NCBI GenBank assembly: GCA_964416505.1
Contig: CAYQEJ010000004.1
Coordinates: forward strand, 59,331-123,330
DNA length: 64,000 nucleotides
Direction of reading: 5' to 3'
Source of the DNA: an uncultured Gammaproteobacteria bacterium
GTDB taxonomy: Bacteria > Patescibacteriota > Microgenomatia > Levybacterales > UBA12049
Shown piece by piece: positions 2,474 through 62,690 of this stretch. Both the position numbers and the translations under genes were made by a program. The notes below the pieces were generated by a model. That model worked only from the letters and a program-made list of their open reading frames with translations, had not been told where the DNA came from and did not search any database. Each line of letters starts with the position of its first letter. The first letter of the stretch is position 1.

Positions 2474-2478
2474 TCAGC

Positions 2479-3660: not shown

Positions 3661-3712
3661 TTCTAAAAATGGATTATACCAAATACTAATTTATGTAGAG
3701 TATAATACTTTA

Positions 3713-5161: not shown

Positions 5162-6147
5162 TTTTTCCAATTTTGTGGAAGAAGAGGACTACTTAACTCA
5201 ACTTCTTGAAATTTAGGTTTTTGATGCCCCTTCTTCTTTGCCCATCCCCATGTCTTTATTAATCCCTTTTCCAAATCAGTTCTATCTTTATACGCCAAAT
5301 ACTTTTTACTTAATCTATGATCACTTATTGCCTCTTTTACTTCCTGCGGCCTTTCTGGAAGATGAATGGGATTAATTTTGGAATTAGATATTTTAGATAT
5401 TAAATTTGCTAATTCATTTACAGTGTAGACATTGTCTGAACCTATATTAAACGTCATTCCATTTACTTTATTTCCCAGACATTTCACCAAGGCATCAACT
5501 ACATCATCTATATATGAGAAACATCTTTTTTGATTTCCTTTTCCATAAATATAATAAGGTTTATTTGCAAGAATAGAATTCATAAAAATTGTCACTACGT
5601 TTCTATATGGATCCTTCATGTTCTGTCTGGGACCATAAACATTGTGAGGTCTTGCTACAACAAAATCAAAATTGTGAATTTTACTTAAAATTTTTAATGC
5701 ATCTTCAAATGCTAGTTTTGAAATTCCATATAAATCTTCCGGCTTAGGCGTATCTTTTTCTTTAAAAGGTATTTGAAGACTACCATAAACAGCTATGCTT
5801 GAAGTAAAAATGAATTTTTTCATTCCACTTCTTATTCCAGCTGTTAATACTTTAATGCTGCCGTCAAAATTTCTAGAAGTTATGTCTACAGGTGAAAATT
5901 GAGCTTTATTTTCTGCGGCATTTGCAGCAAGATGATATATAACATCTGGTTTATATTCTGAAAGAATTTTATCTATTTTTTTAAAATTTCTTATATCTAC
6001 TTTTACTAACTTAGCTTTTTTATTGCAATTTTCTAAACTTCCTCCAGAAAAATCATCTAAAATTAAAACCTTATGTCCTTTAACAATCAATTTATCAACT
6101 AAATGACTTCCTATAAATCCTGCTCCACCTGTAACTACTATCTTCAT
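5158..6147 (-). CDS. NAD-dependent sugar-nucleotide epimerase/dehydratase (short-chain dehydrogenase/reductase (SDR) family).
   Basis: The N-terminus has MKIVVTGGAGFIGSHLVDKL (a Rossmann GxxGxxG motif). A YxxxK motif is present. The length of 329 aa fits. Confidence 0.8.
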   Translation of the reverse strand: MKIVVTGGAGFIGSHLVDKLIVKGHKVLILDDFSGGSLENCNKKAKLVKVDIRNFKKIDKILSEYKPDVIYHLAANAAENKAQFSPVDITSRNFDGSIKVLTAGIRSGMKKFIFTSSIAVYGSLQIPFKEKDTPKPEDLYGISKLAFEDALKILSKIHNFDFVVARPHNVYGPRQNMKDPYRNVVTIFMNSILANKPYYIYGKGNQKRCFSYIDDVVDALVKCLGNKVNGMTFNIGSDNVYTVNELANLISKISNSKINPIHLPERPQEVKEAISDHRLSKKYLAYKDRTDLEKGLIKTWGWAKKKGHQKPKFQEVELSSPLLPQNWKN

Positions 6148-6860
6148 ATCTTAAACCTATACCTTATTATCGTTTCAAACATTTTAAGTCCTACTAATAT
6201 AGACTTTTTCAATGATCCTGTGATTTTTGATTGACCTACTCTTTCATTATAATGAACAGGAACTTCTATGATTGAATTATTATTTAATAGAGCGAGAACA
6301 ATAAATTCTGAAAGAAAATAAGATCCTCCTACCTTAAACTTCGGAATTATATTTTCAATTGATGATCTTCTCATTACCCTAAAAGTACAACCACAATCCG
6401 TAAGAGATATAAAAGGATTATAAAGAAATTGAATTATTCTTGCTAAAACAATGTTTCCTATCCTTAAAAATCCATGCATATTAGCATTTTTTTCTATAAA
6501 TTTAGAGTTCGTCCTAGTTCCTAGAACAATTTCATATTTATCGATATATCGAAGCAGTTTTAATAAATCATTTGCTGAAAATGTTGCATCTGGTTCGCAA
6601 AAAGCTATTAAATCCCCTTTTACTTCTTTTAATCCTCTTCTAAGTGCATTTCCATATCCTTGTTTTTTTTCAAGAATTACTTTTGCTTTTTTTAATTTTG
6701 CAATTTCTGAGGTTCTATCTTTTGAATTATTATCAATAACCAAAATCTCATCAATTATTTTTAGTTTCTTAAAATCTGATATTGCTTTACCAATATTTTT
6801 CTCTTCATTATAAGCTGGAAAAATTAAAGAAATCTTTTTACCTTTGTACATTTTTACCAA
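6144..6860 (-). CDS. GT2 family glycosyltransferase, polyprenol-phosphate sugar transferase-like (DPM1/ArnC-like).
   Basis: Contains ISLIFPAYNEEKNI and VIDNNSKDRTSEIA, the DxD-type GT2 signatures. The gene overlaps the epimerase by 4 nt, which indicates an operon. Confidence 0.75.
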   Translation of the reverse strand: MVKMYKGKKISLIFPAYNEEKNIGKAISDFKKLKIIDEILVIDNNSKDRTSEIAKLKKAKVILEKKQGYGNALRRGLKEVKGDLIAFCEPDATFSANDLLKLLRYIDKYEIVLGTRTNSKFIEKNANMHGFLRIGNIVLARIIQFLYNPFISLTDCGCTFRVMRRSSIENIIPKFKVGGSYFLSEFIVLALLNNNSIIEVPVHYNERVGQSKITGSLKKSILVGLKMFETIIRYRFKI

Positions 6861-8293
6861 ATAGTTACTATTACAGACTGAAAGATAAACACTTGAACAA
6901 TCTGCAGCAAAAGGAGCAGAAAAAATTGCTGATTACGCAATTTTAATTTATTGGTACTGAAATTTGCAACAGTAATTATTAAAAAAGGAACAAATGGTAA
7001 CCAAATTCTGGCTGTCTCTGCTCTCACGCTCCCGGAAAAATTTACTGCTAACAAAATTATCAAGAATGAGACTCCAATAGCGTCAATTTTTGAAAAATTA
7101 AATTTACTTTTAATTAACAATCTTACATCACTAAACGCACCTAATAGAAATAAAACAGATAATGGGATTCCAGCAAAAAGGAAAAAATCATATAGATCAT
7201 AGAAGAGCCATATTAGATATCCTCTTGTAGACTGAGCAGATTCATGTAGAAACATTATTTTTCTTACCATTTCTATAAAATCTAATCCTAATATAAAGAG
7301 AATAAAAATTGGAAATAAAATTCCTAGTAGAAAATATAATCCAAATCTAAAATGTATAAAAAAATTCTTTTTCTTTAAAAATTCCAGCAAAAATAAAATT
7401 AAAAAGAATAACAAGATCGGAAGGAAAGTTAATGTAAAAAAAGCTCCAATGAATAATACAAATCCAGAAATCACAAAATTAAATTTATTCATTAACTTGT
7501 ATCCTCTTAGAAAGTAATAAAGAGAAATACTAGTAAATAGAGGCATAAAGATATCTATAAGAGGAGAAAACATCAATACGCTCGGTATGAATAATGAAAT
7601 AAATAATGCATTTTTTGCTGCTTTTTTTCCATAGGCAATTTTAGCTGATCCAAAAATAAAGATACTATACAAAGATGCAATAAATGAAATAATTATTCCT
7701 GAAAATATTCCATTTGTCTTTTGAACGATGTCTAGCTGATTCCATACTAATGAAATATTTTGCTCTGAAGGCTGCATGCTTAAAACAAATTTTAAAAGCG
7801 GTTCAAAAGGCCTAAGAAATAAATCAAGCAAATAATAAAGTATTATTCCCCCAGGAGGGTGAAATCGTGCATACATGGGAAATCTTTCAATATTTGTTAT
7901 AAATTCCCTAATAAACTCATTCAAATTAACAATATTTAATGATGCAGTAAAATACCCACTAACTAATGGATTTATCGTTCTACCCAGCAATACCTCAATT
8001 CCTGCTCTGTTAAAAAACAAAAAAGTTATTTGAATAAAAAATCCTATTAAAGTTAAAAATAAAAGCTTAGTTAAAGTTATTTCTTTAAATCTAACAAAAC
8101 AAATTAAAGTAATTAAGGATACCAAAAAGGGTGCCCAAAATTTTAAAAAATTAAAACTCGGCAGATATGTCCATCTCCAATCAGGAGAATATGGTGCTGG
8201 ACCAAATAAAAAAGGACTGAAATTAATTGAAATAAGAACCAGCAGAAAAATGGTAAAAAGAAAAACAAAATACAAGGACTTTGATTTATTCAC
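6854..8293 (-). CDS. Polytopic membrane protein immediately downstream of the major pilin gene. It may be an O-antigen-ligase-like (Wzy_C/TfpO-like) or GT-C oligosaccharyltransferase.
   Basis: 479 aa with about 12 hydrophobic helices. Its position mirrors pilA-tfpO arrangements. No catalytic motif could be verified by eye. Confidence 0.3.
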   Translation of the reverse strand: MNKSKSLYFVFLFTIFLLVLISINFSPFLFGPAPYSPDWRWTYLPSFNFLKFWAPFLVSLITLICFVRFKEITLTKLLFLTLIGFFIQITFLFFNRAGIEVLLGRTINPLVSGYFTASLNIVNLNEFIREFITNIERFPMYARFHPPGGIILYYLLDLFLRPFEPLLKFVLSMQPSEQNISLVWNQLDIVQKTNGIFSGIIISFIASLYSIFIFGSAKIAYGKKAAKNALFISLFIPSVLMFSPLIDIFMPLFTSISLYYFLRGYKLMNKFNFVISGFVLFIGAFFTLTFLPILLFFLILFLLEFLKKKNFFIHFRFGLYFLLGILFPIFILFILGLDFIEMVRKIMFLHESAQSTRGYLIWLFYDLYDFFLFAGIPLSVLFLLGAFSDVRLLIKSKFNFSKIDAIGVSFLIILLAVNFSGSVRAETARIWLPFVPFLIITVANFSTNKLKLRNQQFFLLLLLQIVQVFIFQSVIVTIW

Positions 8294-8353: not shown

Positions 8354-8815
8354 TTAGCGGGAGTTTGTGATTGTTTCTCCATTTTCAGGAGTCATTGCTG
8401 CAACTGTTACTCTATTATTTGCATCTTTTACTACGCTATATCCTGTTGTATATGTAGTACAGCTTGTTACTTCAGCACCATTGTTTACTTGAGGATCAAC
8501 TGGTAGAGCTGGGATGTATGTTGTTAATAGGTCAGTGCAAATATCAGCTTTTCCTGCACCACTACCAATTTCCTGTACTGTAGTAGTTATTCCTGCTGGA
8601 AGTACACCTTTGTGATCTGCTGAATATGCACCAATTGCATTAAGGATCTGAGTTACGTCACTTTTTCTCTTTGTGTTGTTTGCTTGTCCGAATTGTCTTG
8701 CTGGATTAATTGCGATTAAAACAATTGAGAGGAGGATTGCTAAAATTCCGATTACGACTAAAAGTTCTATTAATGTGAATCCTGAATTTTTCTTGAAAAC
8801 TTTTGGGCAGTTCAT
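8354..8815 (-). CDS. pilA: Major type IV pilin (PilA-like).
   Basis: Class III signal peptide ...KNSG|FTLIELLVVIGILAIL with Glu at +5. Two Cys lie in the C-terminal D-region. The length is 153 aa. Confidence 0.85.
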   Translation of the reverse strand: MNCPKVFKKNSGFTLIELLVVIGILAILLSIVLIAINPARQFGQANNTKRKSDVTQILNAIGAYSADHKGVLPAGITTTVQEIGSGAGKADICTDLLTTYIPALPVDPQVNNGAEVTSCTTYTTGYSVVKDANNRVTVAAMTPENGETITNSR

Positions 8816-8847
8816 AGTTATATATCTAGACTAAATAAAATTTAATT

Positions 8848-8861
8848 GCTTGTCAAGGGGG
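8848..8861 (-). promoter_or_regulatory. Promoter-like motif upstream of the major pilin gene. The minus strand reads CCCCCTTGACAAGC, which contains a -35 TTGACA.
   Basis: It shares GCTTGTCAAGrGGG with the hup upstream region and is followed by an AT-rich spacer about 35 nt before the pilA ATG. Confidence 0.35.
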
Positions 8862-8874
8862 TAATTTTTCAGCT

Positions 8875-9714
8875 TTAATTAGCTTCAGAATTATTTTCCC
8901 CAGTTCCACTATTTGATGAAAAATTTGACGAAAAATCTGGAGAAATTGCTGGTGAATTTGATGGCGCTATTACAGAAGGAACAGGAGCCGCTGGGTTATT
9001 AACCGGTAAAGCACTAGTTGGTTTTGGTGCCGAAAAAATATATTTATATAAAACAAATACCAGAATTAAAATAAGAAAAACAAAAACACCTGTTAACATA
9101 TAAAGCCTTTTGTTATCTTTTTTATTTTTCTCATTTGATTGCGCAAGCTGAGCCTGATCCGTGAGTAAGCTATAGGCTCTAAGATCTGGAACCTTATCTA
9201 AGATCAAACCAAGATCAAGATTGTTTTGTAAATTTGGCATAACTTCCATACAAGCTGAAAGAGGAATCACTGAGCTTACAACGAATCCAGAATCGACAAA
9301 CGCATTCCTAACAGCATCACATAGCTCCCTATTCGCAGCGGTAATCTTTGTCTTCTTAGTAAATTTCGATTTCTTGCTCAAGTAATCTTGAAATGGAACC
9401 AATTCTAAAAAATCTTGAACATTTTGATCTATCTGAACAGTACCATCAGTAAAATCTTTATCGAAAGTTACTGTTGTGGAAAGAAGAATTACAATATTCT
9501 CAGGAATTATTTTATAATTTGACACCAATGATTGAATCGCTGTCTCTATCTTTTTTTTGCTTATAACTTCAAGATCGCTAATCATATCCGGAGGAAAATC
9601 CACACCTACCGGAGAAGACAATCCGTGGTCATAAAAAAATCCTCTATTATTTTCTAGATAAAATATTCCTGTGGGTCTTTTTGGTAATTCTTTTTTTAAT
9701 TTATCTCTTTCCAT
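8875..9714 (-). CDS. Bitopic membrane protein within the pilus operon, with a cytoplasmic N-domain, one TM and a Pro/Ser-rich tail. It may play a PilM/PilN-like assembly role.
   Basis: A single TM helix (LYMLTGVFVFLILILVFVLY) follows a roughly 195-aa soluble domain. The C-terminal PxxP/S-rich region follows the TM. The gene sits between the minor and major pilin genes. Confidence 0.25.
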   Translation of the reverse strand: MERDKLKKELPKRPTGIFYLENNRGFFYDHGLSSPVGVDFPPDMISDLEVISKKKIETAIQSLVSNYKIIPENIVILLSTTVTFDKDFTDGTVQIDQNVQDFLELVPFQDYLSKKSKFTKKTKITAANRELCDAVRNAFVDSGFVVSSVIPLSACMEVMPNLQNNLDLGLILDKVPDLRAYSLLTDQAQLAQSNEKNKKDNKRLYMLTGVFVFLILILVFVLYKYIFSAPKPTSALPVNNPAAPVPSVIAPSNSPAISPDFSSNFSSNSGTGENNSEAN

Positions 9715-10064
9715 GAAGTAACAGTTAATTGATTATTTGTATTCGATGTCTGGACTTGGACTTTCCGAATTGTATTCGAAAAAGTAGCTGCACTAGTTAT
9801 CGTACCACTATTTACTACTATTACAACAGATCCACCATCAATACTCATAGTCTCTCCTGTATACGAAGGGTCACGAATCAACCTAAGTAACGCATTTTCA
9901 GCTCCTGTCTCTGCCATATAATATGCGGTAGTCCCCTGATCTACGCTACTAGTTGAGATTGCATTATTTAAAACAACCACCACGACTCCAGTAATTATCG
10001 CTAGGGAAATTGCCATAAAAAAAAGCAAAGTTATCAGCGCATTTCCTTTTTGAGATCTAATCAT
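9696..10064 (-). CDS. Minor pilin-like protein (PilX-like, atypical leader).
   Basis: The N-terminus MIRSQKG|NALITLLFFMAISLAII is a prepilin-like hydrophobic helix but lacks Glu at +5. Confidence 0.5.
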   Translation of the reverse strand: MIRSQKGNALITLLFFMAISLAIITGVVVVVLNNAISTSSVDQGTTAYYMAETGAENALLRLIRDPSYTGETMSIDGGSVVIVVNSGTITSAATFSNTIRKVQVQTSNTNNQLTVTSWKEIN

Positions 10065-10570
10065 CTAAGTCCTCCTGTAGTCTTAAAATTCACGACTTCT
10101 TTTCCTGATCTTCTATTTGCTTCTGAAGTTAAGGTATAAGAAATTTGTAATATATCTTTCCCATTGGAATCGCCCTCTATCCTTAGAAAAGAGAGATTCG
10201 ATACTTTTGTTTCATTGCTATTTAATTGGTCAGATGTGCCAGTAATAGAATTTTCTAGAATTAAATTCCCATCGTCTAATCCGTAAGATATATTCTGACT
10301 ATTAGCTACAATTGTCATAGCAGATCCTGAAGCACCTATTAGAGAAGGAATTGTTATACTTGATGCTCTTGACACATCATACCTAAATCTTTCTGCAATA
10401 TATCTTCCATCTACATTTACAGACGAAGTTGCTTGCGATTCTAATTGTAAATCAAAAACTGATCCATACATCTGAAGAGTTACTGCCAAAAGTATGCTAA
10501 ATATTCCCATATAAATGAGCAACTCTATTAAGGTGAATCCTTTTTTAACTTTAAATATTTTTTTAATCAT
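10061..10570 (-). CDS. Minor type IV pilin.
   Basis: KVKKG|FTLIELLIYMGIFSIL is a canonical prepilin cleavage motif with Glu at +5. Confidence 0.75.
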   Translation of the reverse strand: MIKKIFKVKKGFTLIELLIYMGIFSILLAVTLQMYGSVFDLQLESQATSSVNVDGRYIAERFRYDVSRASSITIPSLIGASGSAMTIVANSQNISYGLDDGNLILENSITGTSDQLNSNETKVSNLSFLRIEGDSNGKDILQISYTLTSEANRRSGKEVVNFKTTGGLR

Positions 10571-13530
10571 TAAGGTGAATAATTAACTCCAAAATCATAA
10601 AGAATTGGCGTCTGCGCTTGATCATTTGAGGACATATATATTTTATATCTCATACACTGTCCTGAATTTTCATAACCAGAGCCATCCGAATTCTTAGGAA
10701 GCTCTCCAGCAGCTGTAAAATAACTGCTTGATGTACCATCAGGCCCAACGTATACATAATTTGCGCCACCACACGATCCACCAACAGGATCTGCGATTGC
10801 CACCTGGTATGTTAATGTTGTTTGAGATGGAACGTTAACTGTAGAAAAAAATCTATTAAACATTGATTCTCCCGTTGCGTTAAAAGGCGCAGATTCAAAA
10901 GTACCAATTGATGAGTAAATCGCATCGTCAGGCCCTCCTTCAATTATTTTTAATTCATTTAGCGTAGTATTTGCCACCATGTAAACAAAATTATCACTAT
11001 CTGCTTCCGTTACTGAAGTTAAATCATTAAATCCTTGATCAAAATTTATTCCTGCACAATAAGTCGGCGAGGCCTCATTGGAACTATTCAAAACCTGGTA
11101 TTCTTCAGCATTATTTGAATTTCCAGTATTTCCATCTTTTCCAACTAAAACCACACGCTCTCCGTTTAGAACGGTTAAGGAACGTCTAGGATAAAGATCT
11201 GCATTAGCACCAGTTCCATAATAAAATCCACTCGTTGGACCATAGCTAGGAGATCCAGATGTGCCAGATAAAAATGCTGGAGCAGTTTTATTCGACGTAT
11301 TAATTACATAGAATTGCTTACTATCGGGCACCCCATTGTTATCCTTGTCGACTCCTCCATTTGATGAAATATAAGCTCTAGTTCCATCTGACTTTGCAAA
11401 TACTGAATTAGCTGCTTCTTCGGTAAACTGCTGAGAATTAAAATCAAGTCCGCTTACAACTTTCCAGCTAGCATCTCCACCTGAAATTGCACCGCAAGTG
11501 TTTTCTGCGCTTCTCGCAGTAGATGGAACAGTTGACACATCAACTATTTCAAATTCTCGGTCAGTTACCCCTCCTACGGCAACGTAAACGTATGTATTCA
11601 CTCCAACTTTAACAGGATATATATCATTTGTGGCATAAAGCTCTATATTTCCACCATCAGAACAGTCAGGGTGAATTGGGGTTGTAGTTGCCCAATTACT
11701 GCCACTTTGGCCTAAGGAATATTTCGCTGCTGAAGAAGTACCCGGATCACACTCATACCCATCCAACTGTATTCTGCAACCTTGCATATCAAGCCCGCTT
11801 GAAGTAGATTTTGTATCAATATTACTTAAATCAAAAATGTATAAAAATCCTCCTGAAGCCACATAACCTTTATTATCATAAACAGCTAATGATGTTGCCC
11901 CATAACCAAAAGGTGATCGGTCATAGGAATCATCATTAAAATAAACCTTAACAGTCGCCCAATCAAGTGAAAAATCACGAGTGGTATCACTCGCTACATC
12001 AATAACTCTAACTCTAAAATTCGAATTTGAAAAATCAGCATCGGCCCATGTTCTTCCCCAGTTATCGGTTGACCCTCCTAAAGAATAGGATACTTCTCCT
12101 GTTGTTAGGTTTGCAGTTGTCTTTGCAGTAGTCCAAGTAGATCCCCCATCCCACGAAAGCTGCACGCAAATCTTCGGGCTCCCCGTAGTAGAATCTGCCT
12201 TTGCATCAAGCCTTACCTCTATACCATTGATCGTGGATCCTGATGGAATATTGACGCCATAATTATAATACCTATGCTTGTCTTTATCTGCGCCCGTACA
12301 ATTCGTCCCAGTACCATTTCCAGAGTTGGTATCTACAGCGAAAGAATTATTATCACTATATGCTCTTGTCGGGTTCGTCGCGTAACCATCTCCATCTCCC
12401 CCAGTATCAGATGCATTTGAGGTTGGATTTAAAAATCCGGTATCTGTAGGAGCGTATGTGGAATAAATTTTTGTGTTAAAAAAAGTCCAGTATTTAAAAA
12501 TTTTATTTATAGGATCTTGATATTCACCAGTATTTGAACTGTTATTCGATGGATCTCCGTCATCCACCAAAACAGCAATTACTTCTTTATTAGGAAGATT
12601 CGTTCCCATAAGAGCATAAGTTTTACCCGCTGAAGATTTATAATACTTAATGTCTGTTGTCTTGAAATTATTATCTAAACCAGTTCCCGTTTGTGGAGAA
12701 TATCCTCCTGAAAACTCAGAAGAATTCATGGTAAATTTACCCGCCAAAACAGCTGAAGGAGTGCTTGTATTTGCCGTCACAGTAACATATGCCATTTTTA
12801 TAGAATTCGAAGTTGTAGGAGACGTAGCAACATAAACATTATTTGGAATACTTACAGAAGAACTAGCAGTAGCAGCAACAGCAACGGGTGGACCATCAGG
12901 AAGATCTATCGTGGTTGCAGAAAATGCCGGAGAACACCACTTAGCTTTGTTATCATTTATCAATTTCAACTCTCCTCCCCCTGTGTTAGTTACTTGAATA
13001 TTACTTGCAGTTCCAGAATTAAACTGAGATGAGGTAGTTTCTGTATATGAGAGATTTTTATATCTAGTAAAGTACGAGGTAGAACTAACATTTGACACAA
13101 GCGGAGTATTCCAGCTAACAGTTGTTACAACTTTTTTTGTTGATGGATCAACTGTTCCTCCAGAATTTACAATACCTCCACTGGAGTTTCTTTGCGCATC
13201 TGAGACATCAACTGAAATTGAAAAACCCTCAACTGCCTGGGCGCCTGATGTAAGCACGTACCTTCCATTGGAAATAACTGCATGGTAACTCCCATTTGCC
13301 GGAATATTACTCCATCCTCTTTCCGCTATGCTTCTTACTGCTTCTTGTGTTTCTTTTAAATAGGTTGTTGCCTGAAGTCTTTGCTCCTGCTGCGCTCTTC
13401 CTCCTCTTCCTGCTGCAAGCCCTGTAAGAAGAGCGGGTAAAATTAAAGTTGCAAGTCCGATAGCAATTAGAAGCTCAACTAACGACTGTCCTTTTTGACT
13501 TCTAAATTTTATCAATTTCCTTAAATTCAT
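10570..13530 (-). CDS. Giant pilin-like protein (986 aa) with a class III signal peptide; a putative modular minor pilin or tip adhesin.
   Basis: The N-terminus MNLRKLIKFRSQKG|QSLVELLIAIGLATLIL has Glu at +5. The remainder is Ser/Thr/Gly/Asn/Tyr-rich and predicted beta-rich. The gene lies between minor pilin genes. Confidence 0.7.
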   Translation of the reverse strand: MNLRKLIKFRSQKGQSLVELLIAIGLATLILPALLTGLAAGRGGRAQQEQRLQATTYLKETQEAVRSIAERGWSNIPANGSYHAVISNGRYVLTSGAQAVEGFSISVDVSDAQRNSSGGIVNSGGTVDPSTKKVVTTVSWNTPLVSNVSSTSYFTRYKNLSYTETTSSQFNSGTASNIQVTNTGGGELKLINDNKAKWCSPAFSATTIDLPDGPPVAVAATASSSVSIPNNVYVATSPTTSNSIKMAYVTVTANTSTPSAVLAGKFTMNSSEFSGGYSPQTGTGLDNNFKTTDIKYYKSSAGKTYALMGTNLPNKEVIAVLVDDGDPSNNSSNTGEYQDPINKIFKYWTFFNTKIYSTYAPTDTGFLNPTSNASDTGGDGDGYATNPTRAYSDNNSFAVDTNSGNGTGTNCTGADKDKHRYYNYGVNIPSGSTINGIEVRLDAKADSTTGSPKICVQLSWDGGSTWTTAKTTANLTTGEVSYSLGGSTDNWGRTWADADFSNSNFRVRVIDVASDTTRDFSLDWATVKVYFNDDSYDRSPFGYGATSLAVYDNKGYVASGGFLYIFDLSNIDTKSTSSGLDMQGCRIQLDGYECDPGTSSAAKYSLGQSGSNWATTTPIHPDCSDGGNIELYATNDIYPVKVGVNTYVYVAVGGVTDREFEIVDVSTVPSTARSAENTCGAISGGDASWKVVSGLDFNSQQFTEEAANSVFAKSDGTRAYISSNGGVDKDNNGVPDSKQFYVINTSNKTAPAFLSGTSGSPSYGPTSGFYYGTGANADLYPRRSLTVLNGERVVLVGKDGNTGNSNNAEEYQVLNSSNEASPTYCAGINFDQGFNDLTSVTEADSDNFVYMVANTTLNELKIIEGGPDDAIYSSIGTFESAPFNATGESMFNRFFSTVNVPSQTTLTYQVAIADPVGGSCGGANYVYVGPDGTSSSYFTAAGELPKNSDGSGYENSGQCMRYKIYMSSNDQAQTPILYDFGVNYSP

Positions 13531-14051
13531 CAGTTTACCCCCGTAATAACACCATACCTATTTATAGTTATAATTATTTCTTTATTAATTGCTATCGATC
13601 TGAGCGTTATAGTATTTGATGATGATGAATAACCTACCATTTCTCCACTTAGGGCTGAGAAAAGAAGAGTATTACTCGGTAATGTAGTACTCTTAATTTC
13701 TAGATCAGAAGGCAAATCTACAGTAAAATTAGTCGAATCTCCGCTGTTGTAGGTTCCACCATGAAACAAAATATATTTATTTGACATAAAATATATTCCG
13801 TAATTATCAGCTGAAGCTCTTCCCTCCGTGTTTCCAGTCATCGCCTTTATTTGCTGAGCTCTAATATCAGAAACAAGCTTATCTGTATTTGAAGTTTCAG
13901 AGGCGGATCCCTGAGCACGCAGTAAATTGAAAGTTATAACTCCAAAAAGGACCATCATAATTGAAGAAGCAAGAAGAATCTCAATAAAACTAAAACCTTT
14001 TTGAGACTTAAATTTCTTTAAATGTATAAATCTTGGCATACTATCTAGCAC
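13530..14051 (-). CDS. Minor type IV pilin (GspH/PilE-like).
   Basis: FKSQKG|FSFIEILLASSIMMVLFGVI is a prepilin motif. Confidence 0.75.
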   Translation of the reverse strand: MLDSMPRFIHLKKFKSQKGFSFIEILLASSIMMVLFGVITFNLLRAQGSASETSNTDKLVSDIRAQQIKAMTGNTEGRASADNYGIYFMSNKYILFHGGTYNSGDSTNFTVDLPSDLEIKSTTLPSNTLLFSALSGEMVGYSSSSNTITLRSIAINKEIIITINRYGVITGVN

Positions 14052-15096
14052 TCACCTGACCAATTAGTCCATATATTGGAGCAATTATTGAAAGCATAAC
14101 TCCACCTACTAAAAGACCTACAACTACAAGCATTACTGGCTCAAGAAGTGTAGTTAAATTTTTCAAACTATTAGTAACTCTATAGTCCTGCTGTTCAGAA
14201 ATATCTTGCATAGATTTATCTAAGGTTCCTGTCTTTTCTCCAGCTTCAACAATTTTTATGATTATTGATGAAAATATTTTCTTCTGGTTTTTGAAACCTT
14301 GCGATAAATTCTTTCCTCCCAAAACCGTATCTTCGGCATATTTTATGGCTGCTTCTATGTCTTTTCTTCTTACAACTTGAATCGATAAATCAAGAGCATT
14401 TGTAATCGTAATTCCTGAAGACAAAAGTAAATACATACTTCTTGAAAATCTTGCCAAGTCGATCTCCTTAACTAAATTAGAAACGACTGGAGCCATATAA
14501 AAGACATTAAGAATTCTTCTTCTCTGAGCCTTGAATAATAAAACTCCAAAAATTAAACTCACCAACATAACTACCAAAAAAGGCACTGTATAATCCAACA
14601 AGAGATTGGAAGCAGATATAAGAATCTTTGTAGGAAGAGGAAGTTTTACATTTAATCTAGAAAATACTGTTGAAATTTTTGGAATTACGACAGTTAAGAT
14701 CAAAAGCAAAACACCGGCAAAAACTGCAAGAATAACAACGGGATAAATCATTGCAGATTTTACCTTATCGTTAAATTCCATATCTTTTTGAATCTGCACT
14801 TTTAAATCTTTAAGAGTTACATCCATTGTTCCTGCTTCTTCTGAAGCACGCAAAACATTAACTGTAACCTTATCGAAAATTTCAGGAAATTTTGCAAAAG
14901 AGGAATATAAATGTTGACCCTGCATAAGATCTTCCCTCATTGTTTCTAAAACTCTTTTGGTATTCCCTTTTGAATCCTCAAGCAAAGAATCTATACTCTC
15001 GAGAATTGGAATTCCAGCAGTAATCATGGTAGATAGATTTCCCAAAAGGGCCAATTTATCACCACCCTTTAATGTAAGCTTTTCATTTGGTGTCAT
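14041..15096 (-). CDS. pilC: Type IV pilus assembly platform protein PilC (GspF family).
   Basis: Two GspF-like repeats contain 3 TM segments. The gene is adjacent to pilB. Confidence 0.8.
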   Translation of the reverse strand: MTPNEKLTLKGGDKLALLGNLSTMITAGIPILESIDSLLEDSKGNTKRVLETMREDLMQGQHLYSSFAKFPEIFDKVTVNVLRASEEAGTMDVTLKDLKVQIQKDMEFNDKVKSAMIYPVVILAVFAGVLLLILTVVIPKISTVFSRLNVKLPLPTKILISASNLLLDYTVPFLVVMLVSLIFGVLLFKAQRRRILNVFYMAPVVSNLVKEIDLARFSRSMYLLLSSGITITNALDLSIQVVRRKDIEAAIKYAEDTVLGGKNLSQGFKNQKKIFSSIIIKIVEAGEKTGTLDKSMQDISEQQDYRVTNSLKNLTTLLEPVMLVVVGLLVGGVMLSIIAPIYGLIGQVSAR

Positions 15097-15097
15097 T

Positions 15098-16780
15098 TTA
15101 TGCTGATTCTACTTTGGTAACTCTAAGAACTTCTTTTATAGTGGTCTTACCTTTTACAACCTTATCTAACCCGTCATCAAGCATAGTAGTCATTCCATCA
15201 GCTATCGCCTGCTTTGCAATTTCATCAGAATCACTTTTTGATGTAATAAGTTCTCTGATTTTTTCTGACATATCAATTACTTCAAAAATTCCAATTCTTC
15301 CACTATAGCCAGTGGCATGACAAACCTTACAACCTTTACCTTCATATACCCTAATCTGATCTCCAGGACCGAAGTATTTTGTAACTGCATCATCAGGAAT
15401 ATCTTTTAAAACTGCTTTTCTACTTATCACTATCTGAGCTTTACAAGAATCACAAATTTTCCTAACAAGTCTTTGAGCAATTATCACGTTCACGGTTGAA
15501 GCAACTAAAAAGGGCTCTATTTTCATATCAATCAAGCGTGGAAGGGTAGTAGCAGCATCATTGGTGTGAATCGTAGATAAAACCAAATGCCCGGTTAAAG
15601 CTGCATTTACGGCAATTCCTGCAGTTTCGCTGTCCCTAATTTCTCCTACAAAAATAACATTTGGATCTTGTCTTAAAATAGAACGAAGTCCGCTTGCGAA
15701 CGTTAAATTTGTTTTAGGATTTACTTGAATTTGATTAACACCTTTTATTCTGTATTCAACAGGCTCTTCAATAGTAGTTATATTTTTCTCTCTAGTATTA
15801 ACAATTTTTAAAATTGCATATACCGATGTTGTCTTACCAGATCCTGTAGGACCTGAGGACAGAATCATTCCGTAAGATTTATTAATTGCATTAGTCACTT
15901 TAGTTAAATCTCTTTCGTTCATACCAAGATCCTGAAGAGTGAATTGTCTAAATTTAGAAGACAAAAGTCTCATAACTATTTTTTCCCCTTCAGTAACTGG
16001 AATTATAGAAACACGAATATCCAGATTCTCCTCGTCTACCACAATTCTCATTTTTCCATCCTGCGCACTCAAATGCTCATCTGTTCTAAGACGAGATAAA
16101 ACCTTAATTCTTGTTACGATTCTGTCGTGAAGTTTTTTATCAACATACAAAACATCATGTAAAATTCCATCAATCCTAAATCTAACAAGTGAATTTTTTT
16201 CCTCTGGCTCTATGTGAACATCTGATGCTTTATCTCGATAAGCATAGGTGATAAGCAAATCTACAATTTTTGCAATCGGTGCCTCATCGAGCGTAGAAGC
16301 CGTCCTTGTTATTTCCGCTTGAAGCATTTGATCAAATGTTTGCTGAAGATCTTTTCTATAGAGCTGAAGCACATTTTCTATATCTTTTTCCGTTGCCATG
16401 TAGACGGTCACTTTTTGACCTGTCTTTTTGCTTATCATCTCAGGAAGTTTTGTATTAACTGGATCTGCAGCTGCAAGCTTTATACCATCTGCATCTTTTG
16501 CAAAAACAATTGCTTTGTGTTTCCTGGCCAATCTCTCCGGAACAATTCTATATACCCCTTCTGAAATCGTAATATTAGACAAAACTACAAAAGGATATTT
16601 AATATGATTCGCTATTAGTTGACCAAGCTTATCATCTGGAATTACATCTTTTTCCATTATTGCTTGCTGGAGAGGAATTCTTCCATTCGCCGCAAATACC
16701 AAAACATCCCTCATGGTCTTAGTGTCAACTAGACCAGACTGAAGAAGCAGTTGTTGTATCTCAATATCGGGCAGAAGCAT
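15098..16780 (-). CDS. pilB: Type IV pilus assembly ATPase PilB (GspE family).
   Basis: Walker A GPTGSGKTT is present, along with GspE Asp/His boxes and a tetra-Cys motif CDSCK...CKVC. The length is 560 aa. Confidence 0.9.
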   Translation of the reverse strand: MLLPDIEIQQLLLQSGLVDTKTMRDVLVFAANGRIPLQQAIMEKDVIPDDKLGQLIANHIKYPFVVLSNITISEGVYRIVPERLARKHKAIVFAKDADGIKLAAADPVNTKLPEMISKKTGQKVTVYMATEKDIENVLQLYRKDLQQTFDQMLQAEITRTASTLDEAPIAKIVDLLITYAYRDKASDVHIEPEEKNSLVRFRIDGILHDVLYVDKKLHDRIVTRIKVLSRLRTDEHLSAQDGKMRIVVDEENLDIRVSIIPVTEGEKIVMRLLSSKFRQFTLQDLGMNERDLTKVTNAINKSYGMILSSGPTGSGKTTSVYAILKIVNTREKNITTIEEPVEYRIKGVNQIQVNPKTNLTFASGLRSILRQDPNVIFVGEIRDSETAGIAVNAALTGHLVLSTIHTNDAATTLPRLIDMKIEPFLVASTVNVIIAQRLVRKICDSCKAQIVISRKAVLKDIPDDAVTKYFGPGDQIRVYEGKGCKVCHATGYSGRIGIFEVIDMSEKIRELITSKSDSDEIAKQAIADGMTTMLDDGLDKVVKGKTTIKEVLRVTKVESA

Positions 16781-16869: not shown

Positions 16870-18603
16870 TTGGAAACAATGAAGCTAATCGCATTTATAG
16901 TTTTTTTAATTGCAGGAATTTTTATTACATATCCCTGGATCTTTCATTTAAGTGATTTCGTAACTGGGTATGGAGACAATTTCGTTTATACATGGATACA
17001 TACTTGGGTAATTGAATCTATAATAAATGGAAATATTACACAAATTTTCAATACTAATATTTTCTATCCTTATCAGGTAGGGCTTTCAGTCTCTGATCCA
17101 AATATATCAACAGCAATCCTCTCAATACCCATTTACTTGTTAACTAGAGAGCCAATTTCGACTGTAAATTTCACAACAATATTTTCTATAGTTTTCCTAG
17201 GGTTTTCCATTTACTTACTTTCTTATTATTTAACAAAAAATTATCTAGCTTCTATTTTTTCCGGACTGCTCATAGCATTTTCACCGGCATATCTTAGTTT
17301 CTATGGACATTTACAAATGATGTCTATTGCCTTTACTCCACTTTCTATTCTTTGTTTTTTAATTTTTATAAAAACCAAAAAACAAAAAAATCTAATAATT
17401 TCTTTATTTTTATTTCTTTTACAAACTTATAATAATTTTTTGGGAGGCTACTTTATTCTTTTTTCCTATTTGATCATTTTTTTATTTAATTTAATTGGAA
17501 ATAAATCAAAAACAATTGGTCTGATTTCCAAAAAAAATATTATTATTTTTATTTCTTTTTTTGCACTAATTATTCCAGTCGCTAATTCATACTTTTCGGT
17601 TTCCAAGGAGTTTAATTACAAAAGAGATATTAGAGATGCAGTTCATTTCGCAAACCAACCTGAAGATTTTCTCCTAACTATGGAATTTAGCCGTTTACAA
17701 AAGCCCTTAAAATCACTTCCTTTTAATCAGGTTTCACAAAATTCAGAATTTAAACCTGCATTTTTAGGATTTATATTTAGTCTTTTGTTCTTATTCTCAA
17801 TTTTTTATTTTTTTAAAAATTTAAAAAGGAAAAACATATATTTAAATTCATTTATGACTATAGCTGCTCTCGGATTTGTCTTAAGCCTAGGCCCCGTACT
17901 TCATCTTGGTAGGCAAACCATACATAATCCTATTATTCCTCTCCCTTATGCTCTTTTTTATTATATTGTTCCCGGATTTCAAGGATTCAGGAATTCAGCG
18001 AGATGGGAAGTTCTCATGCTTATCGGGGCTTCCGTTGTAATAGCTGTTATTCTTAGCAAAGTTTTTGGAAAATTTAGTACCAAGAAACAATTCATAATTT
18101 ATTCTCTTCTAACATTAGTGTGCATAATTGAATTAAATCTTCCTCTTAAGTTCGTAAAAATGCAGTCAATAAAAAATATTCCCCAAGAATACCATTGGCT
18201 CGCAACAACTCCTGAGGATACAAAACTAATTGAAATGCCGGTTTACAACTGGAACATGTTCCCCTATGGCAATCAAGAACTTTGGAGACTTTATTATTCA
18301 ACGAGTAATTTCAGAAGAACCGTAAATGGAACTGGAGGATTTACTCCACCTCCTTGGCAGGAAATGGCATATGAACTAGATGAAAATTTCCCAAATGAAA
18401 AATCCATCACCAAACTAAAGAATCTCAACCTCAACTATATTCTTGTTCATAAAAATGAATTTGATAAATTAAATAGTGATAAATTTACAATAAATAAAAA
18501 AATTATACCTAGTGGAGAATTCGTTATTAGAAATTTAAATAAAAATCCAGAATTAAAACTTATCAACAGATTTGGGGATACGTATATTTACAGCCTTAAT
18601 TAG
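16870..18603 (+). CDS. Polytopic membrane protein with a C-terminal soluble domain; a putative GT-C-like glycosyltransferase. The likely ATG start is at 16879.
   Basis: About 12 TM helices. An early loop carries TGYGDNFVYTW. A roughly 150-aa C-terminal extracytoplasmic domain follows. Confidence 0.3.
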   Translation: METMKLIAFIVFLIAGIFITYPWIFHLSDFVTGYGDNFVYTWIHTWVIESIINGNITQIFNTNIFYPYQVGLSVSDPNISTAILSIPIYLLTREPISTVNFTTIFSIVFLGFSIYLLSYYLTKNYLASIFSGLLIAFSPAYLSFYGHLQMMSIAFTPLSILCFLIFIKTKKQKNLIISLFLFLLQTYNNFLGGYFILFSYLIIFLFNLIGNKSKTIGLISKKNIIIFISFFALIIPVANSYFSVSKEFNYKRDIRDAVHFANQPEDFLLTMEFSRLQKPLKSLPFNQVSQNSEFKPAFLGFIFSLLFLFSIFYFFKNLKRKNIYLNSFMTIAALGFVLSLGPVLHLGRQTIHNPIIPLPYALFYYIVPGFQGFRNSARWEVLMLIGASVVIAVILSKVFGKFSTKKQFIIYSLLTLVCIIELNLPLKFVKMQSIKNIPQEYHWLATTPEDTKLIEMPVYNWNMFPYGNQELWRLYYSTSNFRRTVNGTGGFTPPPWQEMAYELDENFPNEKSITKLKNLNLNYILVHKNEFDKLNSDKFTINKKIIPSGEFVIRNLNKNPELKLINRFGDTYIYSLN

Positions 18604-18629: not shown

Positions 18630-20237
18630 TCAATTAGGAGACCATATAGCATTTTCAAATTTTATATTTTTATCCTCATAATTGATCTCACCAGTTTTTT
18701 CTCCAGTTTCTTTATCTTTAAATTGCAGTCCGGCATTAGTTTCTTCTATTTTTGAAGTTATTATTTTATTAAAAGTGTTATATAAATCTGTAAACTGCTT
18801 CTCGCTAAGAATTGCATTTGGTGATGAAATTGAATCAACTAAATCTGACTCAGATCCTGTCTTTAGATCTAATAATTTTACATAAACGGAATCTGATAAT
18901 TTATAAGGCTGAAAGTTACCAGCATACCTACCAATTAAAATTACAAATCTTTTACGTGAGTCGACGTGTAATAATTCAGGTGGAATAGGTGCATTAATTT
19001 TTAGATCATATATTTTTTTAGGGAATTCTCCTTTTTTTAAAACATAAATCCCATCACCTGCTAATAAATTGTACTGCGAATTAATTTTTTCCAAGGGGTA
19101 ATAACTTTTAAGAAACCCCATATCTCTGCTTATTATTCTATTTTCTTCATCTATAAATTTATATTCAGCCTGCGGTGCAATATTTTTTATAGGCACGGTG
19201 TCTTTTGGAATACTGGTAACTAATTTCCAATTCTTATTGGAAATATCATAGGCGTAACTTTTCCAAACATTATCTTGAGCTAATTTGAAATAGATAAATG
19301 AAGGAGAATAGGAAACTATTTCATAATTCTTAAATTCAAACGGAATCAGCGGAGATTCAATCCACCCATTCTTTGTTTGAATGAAGATTTTCTTACAACT
19401 TCTTATCCCATCAAATAGATTTGTATTTACTTTAACTAATCTACCATCTAAACAGCCAGGGATTCCCAATTCTTTAGGCAATTGATCTTGGGGAATGATC
19501 TTAATTTCATTTGAAACAGGATCTATTTTCGTTATCAAAGAATTTCCATTTACAAAATTAAAATCATTTAAAATTAAAATTTTTCCATTCTGATTAAATA
19601 ATTCAGAATTAACAAAATAAGGTTTACTCGATGATTGCTTGGAATAATTAACTACTTCTGGATCCTCATAGGAATCAAAATATTCTGAAGTTATATTTCC
19701 TGAACTTAAATCTAATTTATAAATTCCTCTCTTTATTTGCTTTGAAGAATTACCACAAAAGATAAATAAGAAATTATTAACTTTAGCTACTGAATTCACA
19801 CATCCGAAGACAGTAGGATTTAATTGTCTAACGATGTTTTTATTTTTTGGATCATATTCTACTATCCAATTTAAACCAGCAATCAACTGATGCTCTTTAT
19901 ACTGATAAACTGCACGAACTTCAGGGAAGAAATAAAGAAAATCTTTTTCACTAAGACTATCAAAATTATCAATATGATCAATAAAAACATTTTTTATAAC
20001 TTCATTTTTTACATTTACAGCAACAGTATTTACAATCTCCGAATCCTGCTTTCTATTCTCATTAATAGTAAAGCGACTGCTTAATATTGAAATTATTCCT
20101 ATAAAAAGCGGAATCAAAATTATTACAAAGATAAATAAAAATAATTTTTTTCTAGCAGTTTTTGAAGTTTTTTGGGACCAAGATAAAGCTTTTGGAAGCT
20201 CTGCCCTAGCGCTTTTGTCTGATTGATTTTGATCCAT
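18630..20237 (-). CDS. Hypothetical exported protein anchored by an N-terminal TM. It sits on a cassette bounded by 25-bp direct repeats.
   Basis: An N-terminal basic stretch and TM (LFLFIFVIILIPLFIGIISIL) precede a large Asn/Lys-rich ectodomain. No family recognised. Confidence 0.5.
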   Translation of the reverse strand: MDQNQSDKSARAELPKALSWSQKTSKTARKKLFLFIFVIILIPLFIGIISILSSRFTINENRKQDSEIVNTVAVNVKNEVIKNVFIDHIDNFDSLSEKDFLYFFPEVRAVYQYKEHQLIAGLNWIVEYDPKNKNIVRQLNPTVFGCVNSVAKVNNFLFIFCGNSSKQIKRGIYKLDLSSGNITSEYFDSYEDPEVVNYSKQSSSKPYFVNSELFNQNGKILILNDFNFVNGNSLITKIDPVSNEIKIIPQDQLPKELGIPGCLDGRLVKVNTNLFDGIRSCKKIFIQTKNGWIESPLIPFEFKNYEIVSYSPSFIYFKLAQDNVWKSYAYDISNKNWKLVTSIPKDTVPIKNIAPQAEYKFIDEENRIISRDMGFLKSYYPLEKINSQYNLLAGDGIYVLKKGEFPKKIYDLKINAPIPPELLHVDSRKRFVILIGRYAGNFQPYKLSDSVYVKLLDLKTGSESDLVDSISSPNAILSEKQFTDLYNTFNKIITSKIEETNAGLQFKDKETGEKTGEINYEDKNIKFENAIWSPN

Positions 20238-62541: not shown

Positions 62542-62620
62542 TATAACATTTATAAACGTTATGTAAATATCTTAAGCTCGCTTAAAAATAAAATCACTTC
62601 TTTCCCGATTGATTATATTC

Positions 62621-62651: not shown

Positions 62652-62690
62652 AAGCGCTATAAGATATCTGAGAATTAAATTTATCTTGGA

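Follow-up and report, generated by a model that had tools for sequence, protein, structure and literature searches.

A type IV pilus operon of Levybacteria-type Microgenomatia, probably encoding a monoderm CPR-style pilus with a modular tip adhesin

Introduction

The PilB-driven mechanism of type IV filaments is established. Bacteria of the CPR encode PilB, PilC, a GspL-domain PilM and PilD (Meheust et al. 2019, PMC6744442), and no PilQ was found in CPR in published surveys (PMC6744442, PMC7143001). In TM7x (Saccharibacteria; T4P-1 and T4P-2), PilX2 consists of a pilin and a beta-propeller and is required for host binding (PMC12206443). Modular pilins, in which a pilin module carries further modules, are widespread and are predicted to be located at the tip (Raynaud et al. 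2021, PMC8179133). The same survey lists an 860-residue pilin of Falkowbacteria (CPR) with 12 copies of IPR013211 (PMC8179133).

CPR pili and modular pilins are thus already published, and systems of the general kind described here are known; the present findings extend current views to a new lineage and overturn none. To our knowledge, the Microgenomatia (Levy-, Woese-, Shapiro- and Roizmanbacteria) have no cultivated member, and we know of no identified hosts or partners. The operon analyzed here shares PilB, PilC, a PilM/GspL-like protein and multiple pilins with the CPR/TM7x pili; like them it is without a secretin, and its minor pilins have added C-terminal domains. It differs from them in that PilN, PilO, PilT and PilD do not adjoin it.

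Organization and conservation of the operon

Eight tightly coupled genes were found on the minus strand at positions 8354-16780 of the window, the whole 64-kb stretch of DNA that was analyzed, and all eight open reading frames were present at the coordinates listed in Table 1. The order of transcription is PilB, PilC, a 173-aa minor pilin, the 986-aa giant pilin, a 169-aa minor pilin, a 122-aa protein without Glu5, a bitopic protein of 279 aa and the 153-aa major pilin. Neighboring genes overlap or abut by 1, 4, 11 or 19 nt, the sole gap within the operon being the 59 nt ahead of the major pilin gene, and the genes are translationally coupled. The first-pass annotation had proposed a single minus-strand type IV pilus operon, and HMM matches, class III signals, synteny and the literature agree on this. 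It had placed PilB and PilC first and the major pilin last, as observed; the giant pilin, which it had put after the small ones, is instead the second of four minor pilins.

Table 1. Features of the pilus operon in order of transcription, with the domains of the giant pilin listed below it.
Feature	Size or residues	Position in window	Strand	Signal peptide cleavage	Basis
PilB-type extension ATPase	560 aa	15098..16780	(-)		Pfam T2SSE E=1e-127, MshEN 9e-13
PilC/GspF platform protein	351 aa	14041..15096	(-)		Pfam T2SSF, two repeats, 8e-45
Minor pilin	173 aa	13530..14051	(-)	G19|FSFIE	N_methyl 22.4 bits
Giant modular pilin	986 aa (mature 972 aa, 10 Cys)	10570..13530	(-)	G14|QSLVE	class III signal
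Giant: pilin module (leader, alpha1, beta head)	residues 1-215	12886..13530	(-)		model secondary structure
Giant: propeller-like region, first part	residues 216-356	12463..12885	(-)		four-strand repeats in model
Giant: inserted Asp-box beta-sandwich	residues 357-531 (~175 aa)	11938..12462	(-)		absent from shorter orthologs
Giant: propeller-like region, second part	residues 532-866	10933..11937	(-)		model
Giant: C-terminal beta-sandwich	residues 867-986	10573..10932	(-)		model
Minor pilin	169 aa	10061..10570	(-)	G11|FTLIE	N_methyl 33.1 bits
Pilin-like protein, GspK/PilX/ComGG type	122 aa	9696..10064	(-)	G7|NALIT	motif
PilM/GspL-like bitopic protein	279 aa	8875..9714	(-)		AlphaFold2 model and Foldseek
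Major pilin	153 aa (mature 141 aa)	8354..8815	(-)	G12|FTLIE	N_methyl 35.9 bits

A Pfam profile search assigned T2SSE and T2SSF, and N_methyl was above the Pfam threshold for the 173-, 169- and 153-aa proteins. A regular expression search of all six frames returned exactly four class III signals of the form G|xxxxE in the window, every one of them inside the operon. The type IV filament subunits found are accordingly four G|xxxxE proteins and one variant without Glu5.

The gene order recurred in 73 loci, each from the genome of a different species, and in three further loci. Synteny across the 73 genomes is near-invariant and covers Levy-, Woese-, Shapiro- and Roizmanbacteria and other Microgenomates; the order is also kept in a closed genome of 0.93 Mb and in a contig of Shapirobacteria. 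This recurrence far exceeds chance, and the gene cluster is real and complete-looking. In a related closed genome, DprA was located 3 kb away from the pilus cluster.

Pfam scans of all larger open reading frames detected no PilD, PilT, secretin or PilN/O/P within the 64-kb window, as had been reported for pilD, pilT and the secretin. Peptidase_A24 was absent from the window, a crude motif scan of 76 related loci was also negative, and the processing of the prepilins is assumed because no prepilin peptidase lies within the window. No PilT was found within 10 kb in any of 73 loci, and the window holds no second T2SSE gene. The GspD secretin, GspC and GspM, which mark a type II secretion system, gave no Pfam match in the window either.

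Assembly proteins

The ATPase contains T2SSE together with Walker A (residue 310), Walker B (375), His box (397) and tetracysteine (CxxC at 443 and 484) motifs, as expected for a hexameric ATPase of the GspE/PilB family. Its NCBIfam scores were 525 bits for PilB, 515 for GspE, 246 for ComGA and 165 for the PilT family; ComGA, with a cutoff of its own of 300 bits, was the fifth-best model. The platform protein has the two T2SSF repeats of polytopic GspF/PilC proteins and scored 227 bits with the GspF and 205 bits with the PilC model of NCBIfam. It lacks the N-terminal 65-80 residues or so, because the alignment starts at about position 67-83 of the GspF/PilC models of about 400 aa. The earlier PilB and PilC calls were confirmed by the Pfam matches in Table 1.

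In the AlphaFold2 model the bitopic protein consists of a reduced actin-like cytoplasmic domain (residues ~11-185), a transmembrane helix (~201-228) and a disordered tail of about 50 aa rich in Pro, Ser and Thr; pLDDT was above 90 for residues 11-185. Foldseek matched the fold in the PDB to PilM (5eox, 2ych and 3jc8), the cytoplasmic domain of GspL/EpsL (4pht, 1w97 and 5tkw) and FtsA, with E=1e-7 to 1e-4 and probability 1.00. The Pfam GspL and PilM models did not match the window's own protein, and PilM_2 was weakly matched (0.003) by one of 17 orthologs. The first-pass annotation had seen no PilM, PilN, PilO or PilP homologs in the window. PilN/O/P were indeed not found, but for PilM the statement appears to be wrong, given the fold-level match of the confident AlphaFold model to PilM, GspL/EpsL and FtsA. 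The protein resembles GspL and PilM in its fold and GspL in its topology, an actin-like cytoplasmic domain ahead of a single transmembrane helix. It differs from them in that the domain is much reduced, to about 175 residues, and in that a periplasmic ferredoxin-like domain is missing. No PilN/PilO-type domain was detected in the protein; its orthologs are tail-anchored or carry a disordered tail or a LytR_C-type domain. This minimal tail-anchored PilM/GspL variant suggests how little of an alignment complex a monoderm pilus may require.

Small minor pilins and major pilin

The 173-aa pilin, with orthologs in 71 loci, is weakly GspH/ComGD-like (ComGD 2e-5, GspH 2e-3), and its profile matched solved pilins at the N-terminal helices only. 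For the 169-aa pilin TIGR02532 scored over its cutoff, and the profile matched pilin N-termini. The 122-aa protein lacks Glu5, because its signal reads G|NALIT, and Glu5 was missing from every sampled ortholog. Pfam N_methyl gave no match in this protein, weak matches were obtained to GspK (0.008) and ComGG (0.09), and profile comparison found no sequence relative in the PDB. It is a probable tip cap. The major pilin matched GspG (1e-7). Residues 12-42 are near-identical across 17 orthologs and both cysteines of the Cys93-Cys119 pair are invariant in them. The earlier description of a major pilin with a disulfide holds. One to three tandem copies of the gene are present in related genomes.

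The 986-residue pilin

The AlphaFold2 model of the giant pilin (pLDDT 88.9) has a canonical alpha1 helix of 56 residues (16-71) followed by a beta-sheet head. Together with the G|QSLVE class III signal, this supports the first-pass assignment of a giant protein with a prepilin motif. N_methyl scored 16.7 bits, below the Pfam threshold of 21.2, and no further Pfam domain was matched in the protein itself. The +1 residue is Gln, which seems unusual. More than 796 homologs were found, the best 120 with 55-74% identity over the full length; the family as a whole retains G-1 and Glu5. The gene is flanked by minor pilin genes, which it overlaps by 1 nt, and it keeps this position in more than 70 genomes. 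Median identity was 57% for the giant pilin and 56% for PilC, as against 40-43% for the other minor pilins.

The model comprises a pilin module followed by three other domains, which span about 770 residues and whose boundaries are borne out by natural variants lacking them. The profile of the pilin module, which also occurs in relatives of about 650 aa, matched geopilin/PilA N-termini only. The all-beta region gave Foldseek matches solely to beta-propeller proteins, at a low TM-score of 0.1-0.25; residues 532-866 are the most conserved part of the protein, with a mean identity of 68%. The LVIVD repeat PF08309, which we take to be the repeat of entry IPR013211, was matched by two of nine orthologs (best E=4e-6), the window's own protein being unmatched. 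At the C-terminus, C920 and C959 are invariant and the end, NYSP, is conserved in two alignments.

PilY1 was absent from the top 50 Foldseek matches of the giant pilin, the protein had no Pfam PilY1 (Neisseria_PilC) match, and its propeller profile was related by sequence to no solved structure, PilY1 included. A tip adhesin of the PilY1/PilC type was ruled out, as there is no Pfam match and the protein is itself a pilin.

Precisely residues 357-531 are missing in giant pilin orthologs of about 800-830 aa, e.g. P0150. Of 76 loci, 48 encode a giant pilin with this domain, and its insertion site never varies. It matched no Pfam family; the sole resemblance was to sialidases, through a weak Asp-box match. 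The domain recurs, at 55-67% identity, in hundreds of secreted proteins other than pilins from other phyla, and it is a widespread extracellular family outside Pfam so far. Elsewhere it co-occurs with PKD, cadherin-like, Big_5, CBM_3 and M14 peptidase domains, partners typical of a binding module. This undescribed family is also found in secreted enzymes from Chloroflexota, Actinomycetota and other groups.

Identity and function of the pilus

Taken together, the locus is probably the core type IV pilus operon of an ultra-small, Levybacteria-type bacterium (Microgenomatia, CPR/Patescibacteria), encoding a monoderm CPR-style pilus with a modular tip adhesin. By family assignment, the hexameric extension ATPase PilB would drive the platform PilC, and by analogy with GspL-GspE and PilM the membrane-anchored actin-fold protein may tether PilB. 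The four minor pilins are expected to prime assembly and remain at the tip, the 122-aa protein presumably capping the filament with the 173-, 986- and 169-aa pilins beneath it, and the 141-aa disulfide-bonded major pilin would polymerize below them. With a monoderm-like envelope, no secretin would be required. Genes for the prepilin peptidase and for a retraction ATPase, if there is one, would have to lie elsewhere in the genome. The pilin module of the giant protein is predicted to display some 770 residues, made up of a beta-propeller, the inserted Asp-box beta-sandwich and the C-terminal beta-sandwich, a bulk that could probably be accommodated only at the tip.

A competence pilus of the Com type is an unlikely reading of the operon. 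The filament would be short and DNA-capturing, and the giant pilin would be a receptor like ComZ, the DNA or substrate receptor of Thermus. Like the ComG system of Firmicutes (comGA-GG), the system is of monoderm type and without a secretin, and a single operon encodes the ATPase, the platform, one major and four minor pilins; the first-pass annotation had called it Com-pilus-like. Among the weak best matches for the small pilins are ComGD, ComGE and ComGG, and the nearby DprA of the related closed genome and the lack of PilT within 10 kb in 73 loci fit as well. CPR rely on scavenged nucleotides, and a link to competence has been proposed (PMC6744442). However, the Com-like label had to be dropped: the ATPase is a full-length PilB/GspE-type enzyme with MshEN, for which ComGA is just the fifth-best model, and not a short ComGA, and a 141-aa pilin with a disulfide stands in place of the short ComGC. 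Moreover, a PilM/GspL-like gene is present here, and we know of no such protein in ComG operons and of no giant pilin in Com systems. The modules of the giant pilin and their partner domains (CBM_3, PKD, cadherin-like) resemble glycan or protein binders rather than DNA binders. In TM7x, deletion of non-essential T4P-2 genes affected host binding, not motility or competency (PMC12206443).

It is also quite improbable that the 986-aa protein stays outside the filament, as a surface protein or possible enzyme anchored by its pilin-like helix and maybe released by PilD, with the pilus machinery serving only for its export or anchoring in a pseudopilin/T2SS-like logic. The conserved G-1 and Glu5, the canonical helix and pilin head in the model, and the placement of the gene among minor pilin genes in more than 70 genomes argue for a filament subunit, and the window encodes neither a secretin nor GspC or GspM. 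An unassembled protein would nevertheless fit the sub-threshold N_methyl score, the lack of other Pfam domains and the Gln at +1. It would also fit a fold resembling sialidase-type propellers with lectin inserts, a propeller whose conservation suits an active site better than a variable adhesin, and the GspG-, GspH-, GspK- and GspL-like best matches across the operon. A classical diderm type IVa pilus or T2SS, with the missing secretin, PilN/O/P and PilT outside the window, is highly improbable, although the scans covered only 64 kb of the genome and the PilB/GspE and PilC/GspF models score about equally. Within 10 kb in 73 loci there is no assigned secretin-sized neighbor and no second ATPase, and the PilM-like protein has a membrane anchor built into the same chain and contains no PilN/PilO-type domain. 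The published surveys likewise report no PilQ in CPR (PMC6744442, PMC7143001). The first-pass choice of a CPR-style pilus over a proteobacterial type IVa pilus was retained, as no PilQ or PilN/O/P match was found within the window.

In the preferred monoderm, CPR-style pilus, the giant pilin is probably an adhesin at the pilus tip, and would most likely be the unit that binds a receptor on touching a host cell or surface glycan. The first-pass remark that small episymbionts may use such pili to attach to hosts and take up DNA is in line with published work on Saccharibacteria (PMC12206443). It is the most obvious candidate for first contact, because its operon position is kept in more than 70 species and its conservation equals that of the cytoplasmic machinery. 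Such strong conservation is atypical of an adhesin under host pressure and could instead reflect an enzymatic or structural role. A more speculative proposal, for which the chances are rather low, is that the giant pilin forms a conserved tip organelle for host recognition or processing throughout the Microgenomatia lineage, in which the slowly evolving propeller and the Asp-box domain bind or even cleave a conserved cell-wall glycan. If true, it would offer a direct biochemical way to identify which hosts or substrates these uncultivated bacteria use, and the Asp-box domain would define a new family of carbohydrate-binding modules. Produced as recombinant proteins, the propeller and the Asp-box domain might serve as probes, either on glycan arrays or in binding to candidate host cells.

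Comparison with other large pilins and tip complexes

The giant pilin carries an extra inserted domain compared with the CPR/TM7x pilins, and its canonical G|xxxxE site contrasts with TM7x PilX1 and PilX2, which are reported to lack a predicted PilD site. Its propeller is probably LVIVD-type and that of PilX2 RCC1-type, PilX2 being compared by its published description. With modular pilins such as PilB and PilC of S. sanguinis it shares a pilin module with bulky functional modules and a predicted fit at the tip only. It differs from them in its larger size, in the nesting of one module inside another and in modules that, in the window's own protein, Pfam does not recognize. As in FimU-PilVWX-PilY1 of proteobacterial type IVa pili and GspHIJK of the T2SS, four minor pilins are co-encoded, one of them without Glu5, although no secretin is present here. 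A large beta-propeller protein that is probably a tip adhesin also recalls the FimU-PilVWX-PilY1 complex, but the propeller is fused to a pilin here, whereas PilY1 is a separate non-pilin protein. In some relatives a histidine kinase and a response regulator adjoin the minor pilin genes, an arrangement that recalls FimS/AlgR.

Organization of the pilus operon

Eight minus-strand open reading frames were found at window positions 8354-16780, with the sizes given in the first-pass annotation. Neighbouring genes overlapped by 1-19 nt or were spaced by 1 nt, the sole exception being a 59-nt gap ahead of the major pilin gene. This spacing is the signature of a single translationally coupled operon. 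The gene order differed slightly from the one first described, where all small pilin genes preceded the giant gene; the latter is the second of four minor pilin genes. A scan for promoters and terminators returned fewer sites than, or no more than, shuffled sequence and was left unused.

Features of the pilus operon and of the surrounding DNA (window positions; a hyphen in the signal marks the cleavage site; identity is the median to the window's protein)
Feature	Position	Strand	Length (aa)	Transcription order	Class III signal (regex)	Identity
PilB	15098-16780	-	560	1st		64%
PilC	14041-15096	-	351	2nd		56%
Small (minor) pilin	13530-14051	-	173	3rd	G19-FSFIE	40%
Giant pilin	10570-13530	-	986	4th	G14-QSLVE	57%
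Gln15 codon of giant pilin	13489-13491
Small (minor) pilin	10061-10570	-	169	5th	G11-FTLIE	40%
Small pilin-like protein	9696-10064	-	122	6th		43%
Bitopic PilM-like protein	8875-9714	-	279	7th		28%
Major pilin	8354-8815	-	153	8th	G12-FTLIE	59%
PMT_2-like 10-TM protein	3557-5161
NAD-dependent epimerase	5158-6147
GT2 glycosyltransferase	6144-6860
12-TM protein without family	6854-8293
Divergent 10-TM protein	16870-18603
Class I lysyl-tRNA synthetase	25030-26544	-
Probable RNase P RNA	39968-40316	+
Three P-loop kinase genes	50205-51852	-
ORFs without Pfam family	1802-3660	-
ORFs without Pfam family	18630-20237	-
ORFs without Pfam family	61975-63239	-

Pfam searches assigned PilB to T2SSE (1e-127) with an N-terminal MshEN domain and found two T2SSF repeats in PilC, which bears out the domain assignment on which the pilus reading depended. 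PilB contained Walker A, Walker B, a His box and two CxxC motifs. The RLGxx motif of a c-di-GMP-sensing MshEN domain was not seen when its N-terminus was inspected by eye. Among NCBIfam models PilB scored 525 bits with PilB, 515 with GspE and just 246 with ComGA. The earlier description as a CPR-style type IV pilus is retained in its main point, but not its "Com-like" part. A type II secretion system was considered and rejected because the window has no secretin, GspC or GspM. Pfam searches of all larger ORFs in the window found no Peptidase_A24, second T2SSE ATPase, secretin, PilN, PilO or PilP, in line with the earlier statement that pilD, pilT, secretin and PilN/O/P genes are missing there. 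A motif scan for prepilin peptidase was likewise negative in the window and in 76 related loci; the regular expression is crude, so this is no evidence of absence. The operon holds the full set of filament-building parts except the peptidase.

Canonical class III signals numbered exactly four in a six-frame regex search of the 64 kb, and every one lay inside the operon. The 122-aa protein carries G7-NALIT without Glu5, and Glu5 was missing in every sampled ortholog; its best matches, all weak, were GspK and ComGG. In type IV filaments the tip-capping minor pilin is the one without Glu5. In the major pilin, C93 and C119 were invariant among 17 orthologs and the N-terminal 30 residues were almost invariant. 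When profiles of each minor pilin, of the pilin module and propeller of the giant protein and of the PilM-like protein were compared with all PDB chains, only the N-terminal pilin helix matched. A one-to-one assignment of the small pilins to GspH/I/J/K or FimU/PilV/W/X was therefore not possible.

The giant pilin and its inserted domain

More than 796 homologs of the giant pilin were found. The best 120, with 55-74% identity over the full length, came from Levybacteria, Microgenomates group and Patescibacteria MAGs and carried no names beyond "type II secretion system protein", "PulG" or "hypothetical". An exhaustive phmmer search gave 4188 matches among 1.84 billion cluster representatives, falling into three classes. 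The first consisted of full-length orthologs. The second comprised shorter pilins sharing the GQSLVELL-type N-terminus: forms of about 650 aa had only residues ~10-265 and ~705-986 in common with the giant pilin, and forms of about 800-830 aa lacked exactly residues 358-534. The third comprised hundreds of non-pilins with a Sec-type N-terminus, in which the ~175-aa stretch 357-531 occurs 1-11 times, with 55-67% identity.

An AlphaFold2 model (108-sequence alignment, mean pLDDT 88.9) predicted a 56-residue alpha1 helix (16-71), a beta-sheet head (80-190), four-strand repeats at 217-351 and 547-865, a separate domain at 358-532 and a C-terminal beta-sandwich (875-985). Foldseek searches of PDB and BFVD with the whole model returned only generic propellers (DDB1, sialidases, podophage nozzle proteins) at TM-scores of 0.1-0.25. 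These matches were taken to reflect a similar fold and nothing more, rather than a link to phages. LVIVD repeats (PF08309; presumably the repeat of entry IPR013211) were found in two of nine orthologs. Most of the ten cysteines were invariant or nearly so. Conservation was highest in the second part of the propeller, at 68%, and in the inserted domain, at 64%; it was lowest in the head of the pilin module and in the sandwich at the C-terminus, at 52% each. The +1 residue was Gln (G-QSLVELL) in most family members, versus the usual Phe or Met; after cleavage it could undergo N-methylation or pyroglutamate cyclisation.

Pfam and PDB searches gave no family for the inserted domain (residues 357-531; window positions 11938-12462, minus strand), an Asp-box-like match to sialidases ("SWDGGxTW") being the sole other signal. 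It was present in the giant pilin at 48 of the 76 loci, with an unchanging insertion site, and the other genes there carried no copy. Copies elsewhere belonged to secreted proteins from Chloroflexota, Dehalococcoidia, Micromonosporaceae, Acidobacteria and Methylobacter, where the neighbouring domains were PKD, Big_5, cadherin-like, CarboxypepD_reg, CBM_3 and M14 peptidase. The family counted 856 proteins from several phyla at E<1e-10; the domain was frequently located at the C-terminus or arranged as tandem repeats, numbering up to 11. One subtype had lost a covarying Cys pair along with a loop. From these sequence comparisons, the ~175-aa Asp-box domain is apparently an undescribed, widespread extracellular domain family.

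A PilM/GspL-like bitopic protein

No Pfam or NCBIfam family was found for the bitopic protein, and a word-based search gave only 27 homologs, those with names being from Levybacteria. In an AlphaFold2 model (21 sequences) residues 11-185 had pLDDT >90, followed by one predicted transmembrane helix and a disordered Pro/Ser/Thr-rich tail. Foldseek against PDB matched PilM (5eox, 2ych, 3jc8), the cytoplasmic domain of GspL/EpsL (4pht, 1w97, 1yf5, 5tkw) and also FtsA, all with probability 1.00 and E-values of 1e-7 to 1e-4. PilM_2 of Pfam was touched by one of 17 diverse orthologs, at 0.003. Because of this PilM/GspL-like fold, the earlier claim that PilM is missing was wrong. Orthologs occurred in three forms: some, of 219-239 aa, were tail-anchored, some ended in about 50 disordered residues, as in the window, and others carried a LytR_C-type extracellular domain 125-155 aa long. 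A PilN/PilO-type domain was in none of the orthologs examined. The pilus machine thus seems to rely on a minimal GspL-like protein with its own membrane anchor.

Distribution

A species scan, taking one genome per species and a narrower alignment after the first proved too divergent, gave 73 loci, the named ones from Levyibacteriota, Woesebacteria, Shapirobacteria, Roizmanbacteria and Microgenomates. The order PilB-PilC-173-giant-169-122-PilM-like-major pilin (1-3 copies) was almost invariant, and no second ATPase was found within 10 kb of any locus. The same order was present in a closed 0.93-Mb Microgenomates genome (L001) and a Shapirobacteria contig (L076). In these two, a response regulator and a HisKA/HATPase_c histidine kinase lie between pilC and the minor pilin genes (L001 4059-9443, L076 3141-7609), recalling the control of the Pseudomonas minor pilin operon by FimS/AlgR; the window has no such pair. 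Most third-party MAG records among the loci with this operon (L003-L073) are titled "uncultured Gammaproteobacteria" or "Pseudomonadales"; on low-GC, CPR-like contigs these titles look wrong.

Proposed assembly and relation to known systems

By analogy with type IV filaments, PilB would power PilC and be kept at the membrane by the GspL/PilM-like protein. The four minor pilins would form a priming complex that ends at the tip, where the Glu5-less protein would be the cap, with the major pilin polymerising beneath the complex. The ~770 extra residues of the giant pilin could be accommodated at the tip only; the same argument from bulk was made for PilB of S. sanguinis (PMC8179133). Its modules and their partners elsewhere favour a role in binding a glycan or protein ligand, which agrees with the host-binding role of PilX2, a propeller-bearing pilin of Saccharibacteria (PMC12206443).

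Type IV pili lacking a secretin have been described in the literature as a hallmark of CPR genomes (PMC6744442, PMC7143001), and modular pilins are widespread, a survey including a Falkowbacteria pilin of 860 residues that carries 12 copies of the IPR013211 repeat (PMC8179133). With both features already known, the locus belongs to a known kind. Literature searches for LVIVD with pilin (one unrelated preprint) and for Levybacteria with type IV pili found nothing relevant. Particular to this locus are a very conserved, Microgenomatia-specific family of 986-aa pilins, whose propeller contains a mobile domain that lacks annotation and whose canonical cleavage site has Gln as its +1 residue, and the predicted pared-down PilM/GspL protein.

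Surrounding genes

Among the larger ORFs flanking the operon, Pfam identified glycosyltransferase-type genes, SecA, aminoacyl-tRNA synthetases, RecA/RecX and a ribosomal protein operon. Genes of cell-surface glycosylation type border the pilus operon on both sides (3557-8293 and 16870-18603). The 12-TM gene lies directly downstream of the major pilin gene, and the divergent 10-TM protein matched DUF7657 weakly. In L003-L005 and L008, among the nearest relatives, the pilin gene is followed by the 12-TM, GT2 and epimerase genes as a trio; L006 has 12-TM and GT2 only. Glycosylation of the pilin or envelope is possible.

A full-length match to bacterial class A RNase P RNA (model positions 1-367, E=8e-14) falls within an otherwise "empty" 740-nt gap. 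Its 48.6 bits are below the Rfam gathering score of 100, and the default scan therefore missed it; it is probably a divergent CPR RNase P RNA. Three consecutive adenylate-kinase-like genes (ADK, AAA_18, ADK) sit in the ribosomal protein/SecY/Map cluster, where a single adk is usual. Lysyl-tRNA synthetase is of class I (tRNA-synt_1f, 1e-85), versus the usual bacterial class II. For ORFs of 535, 393, 223, 188 and 182 aa, Pfam gave no family at the E<=0.001 level; the longest, of 535 aa, has a single N-terminal TM helix and a weak Kelch match.
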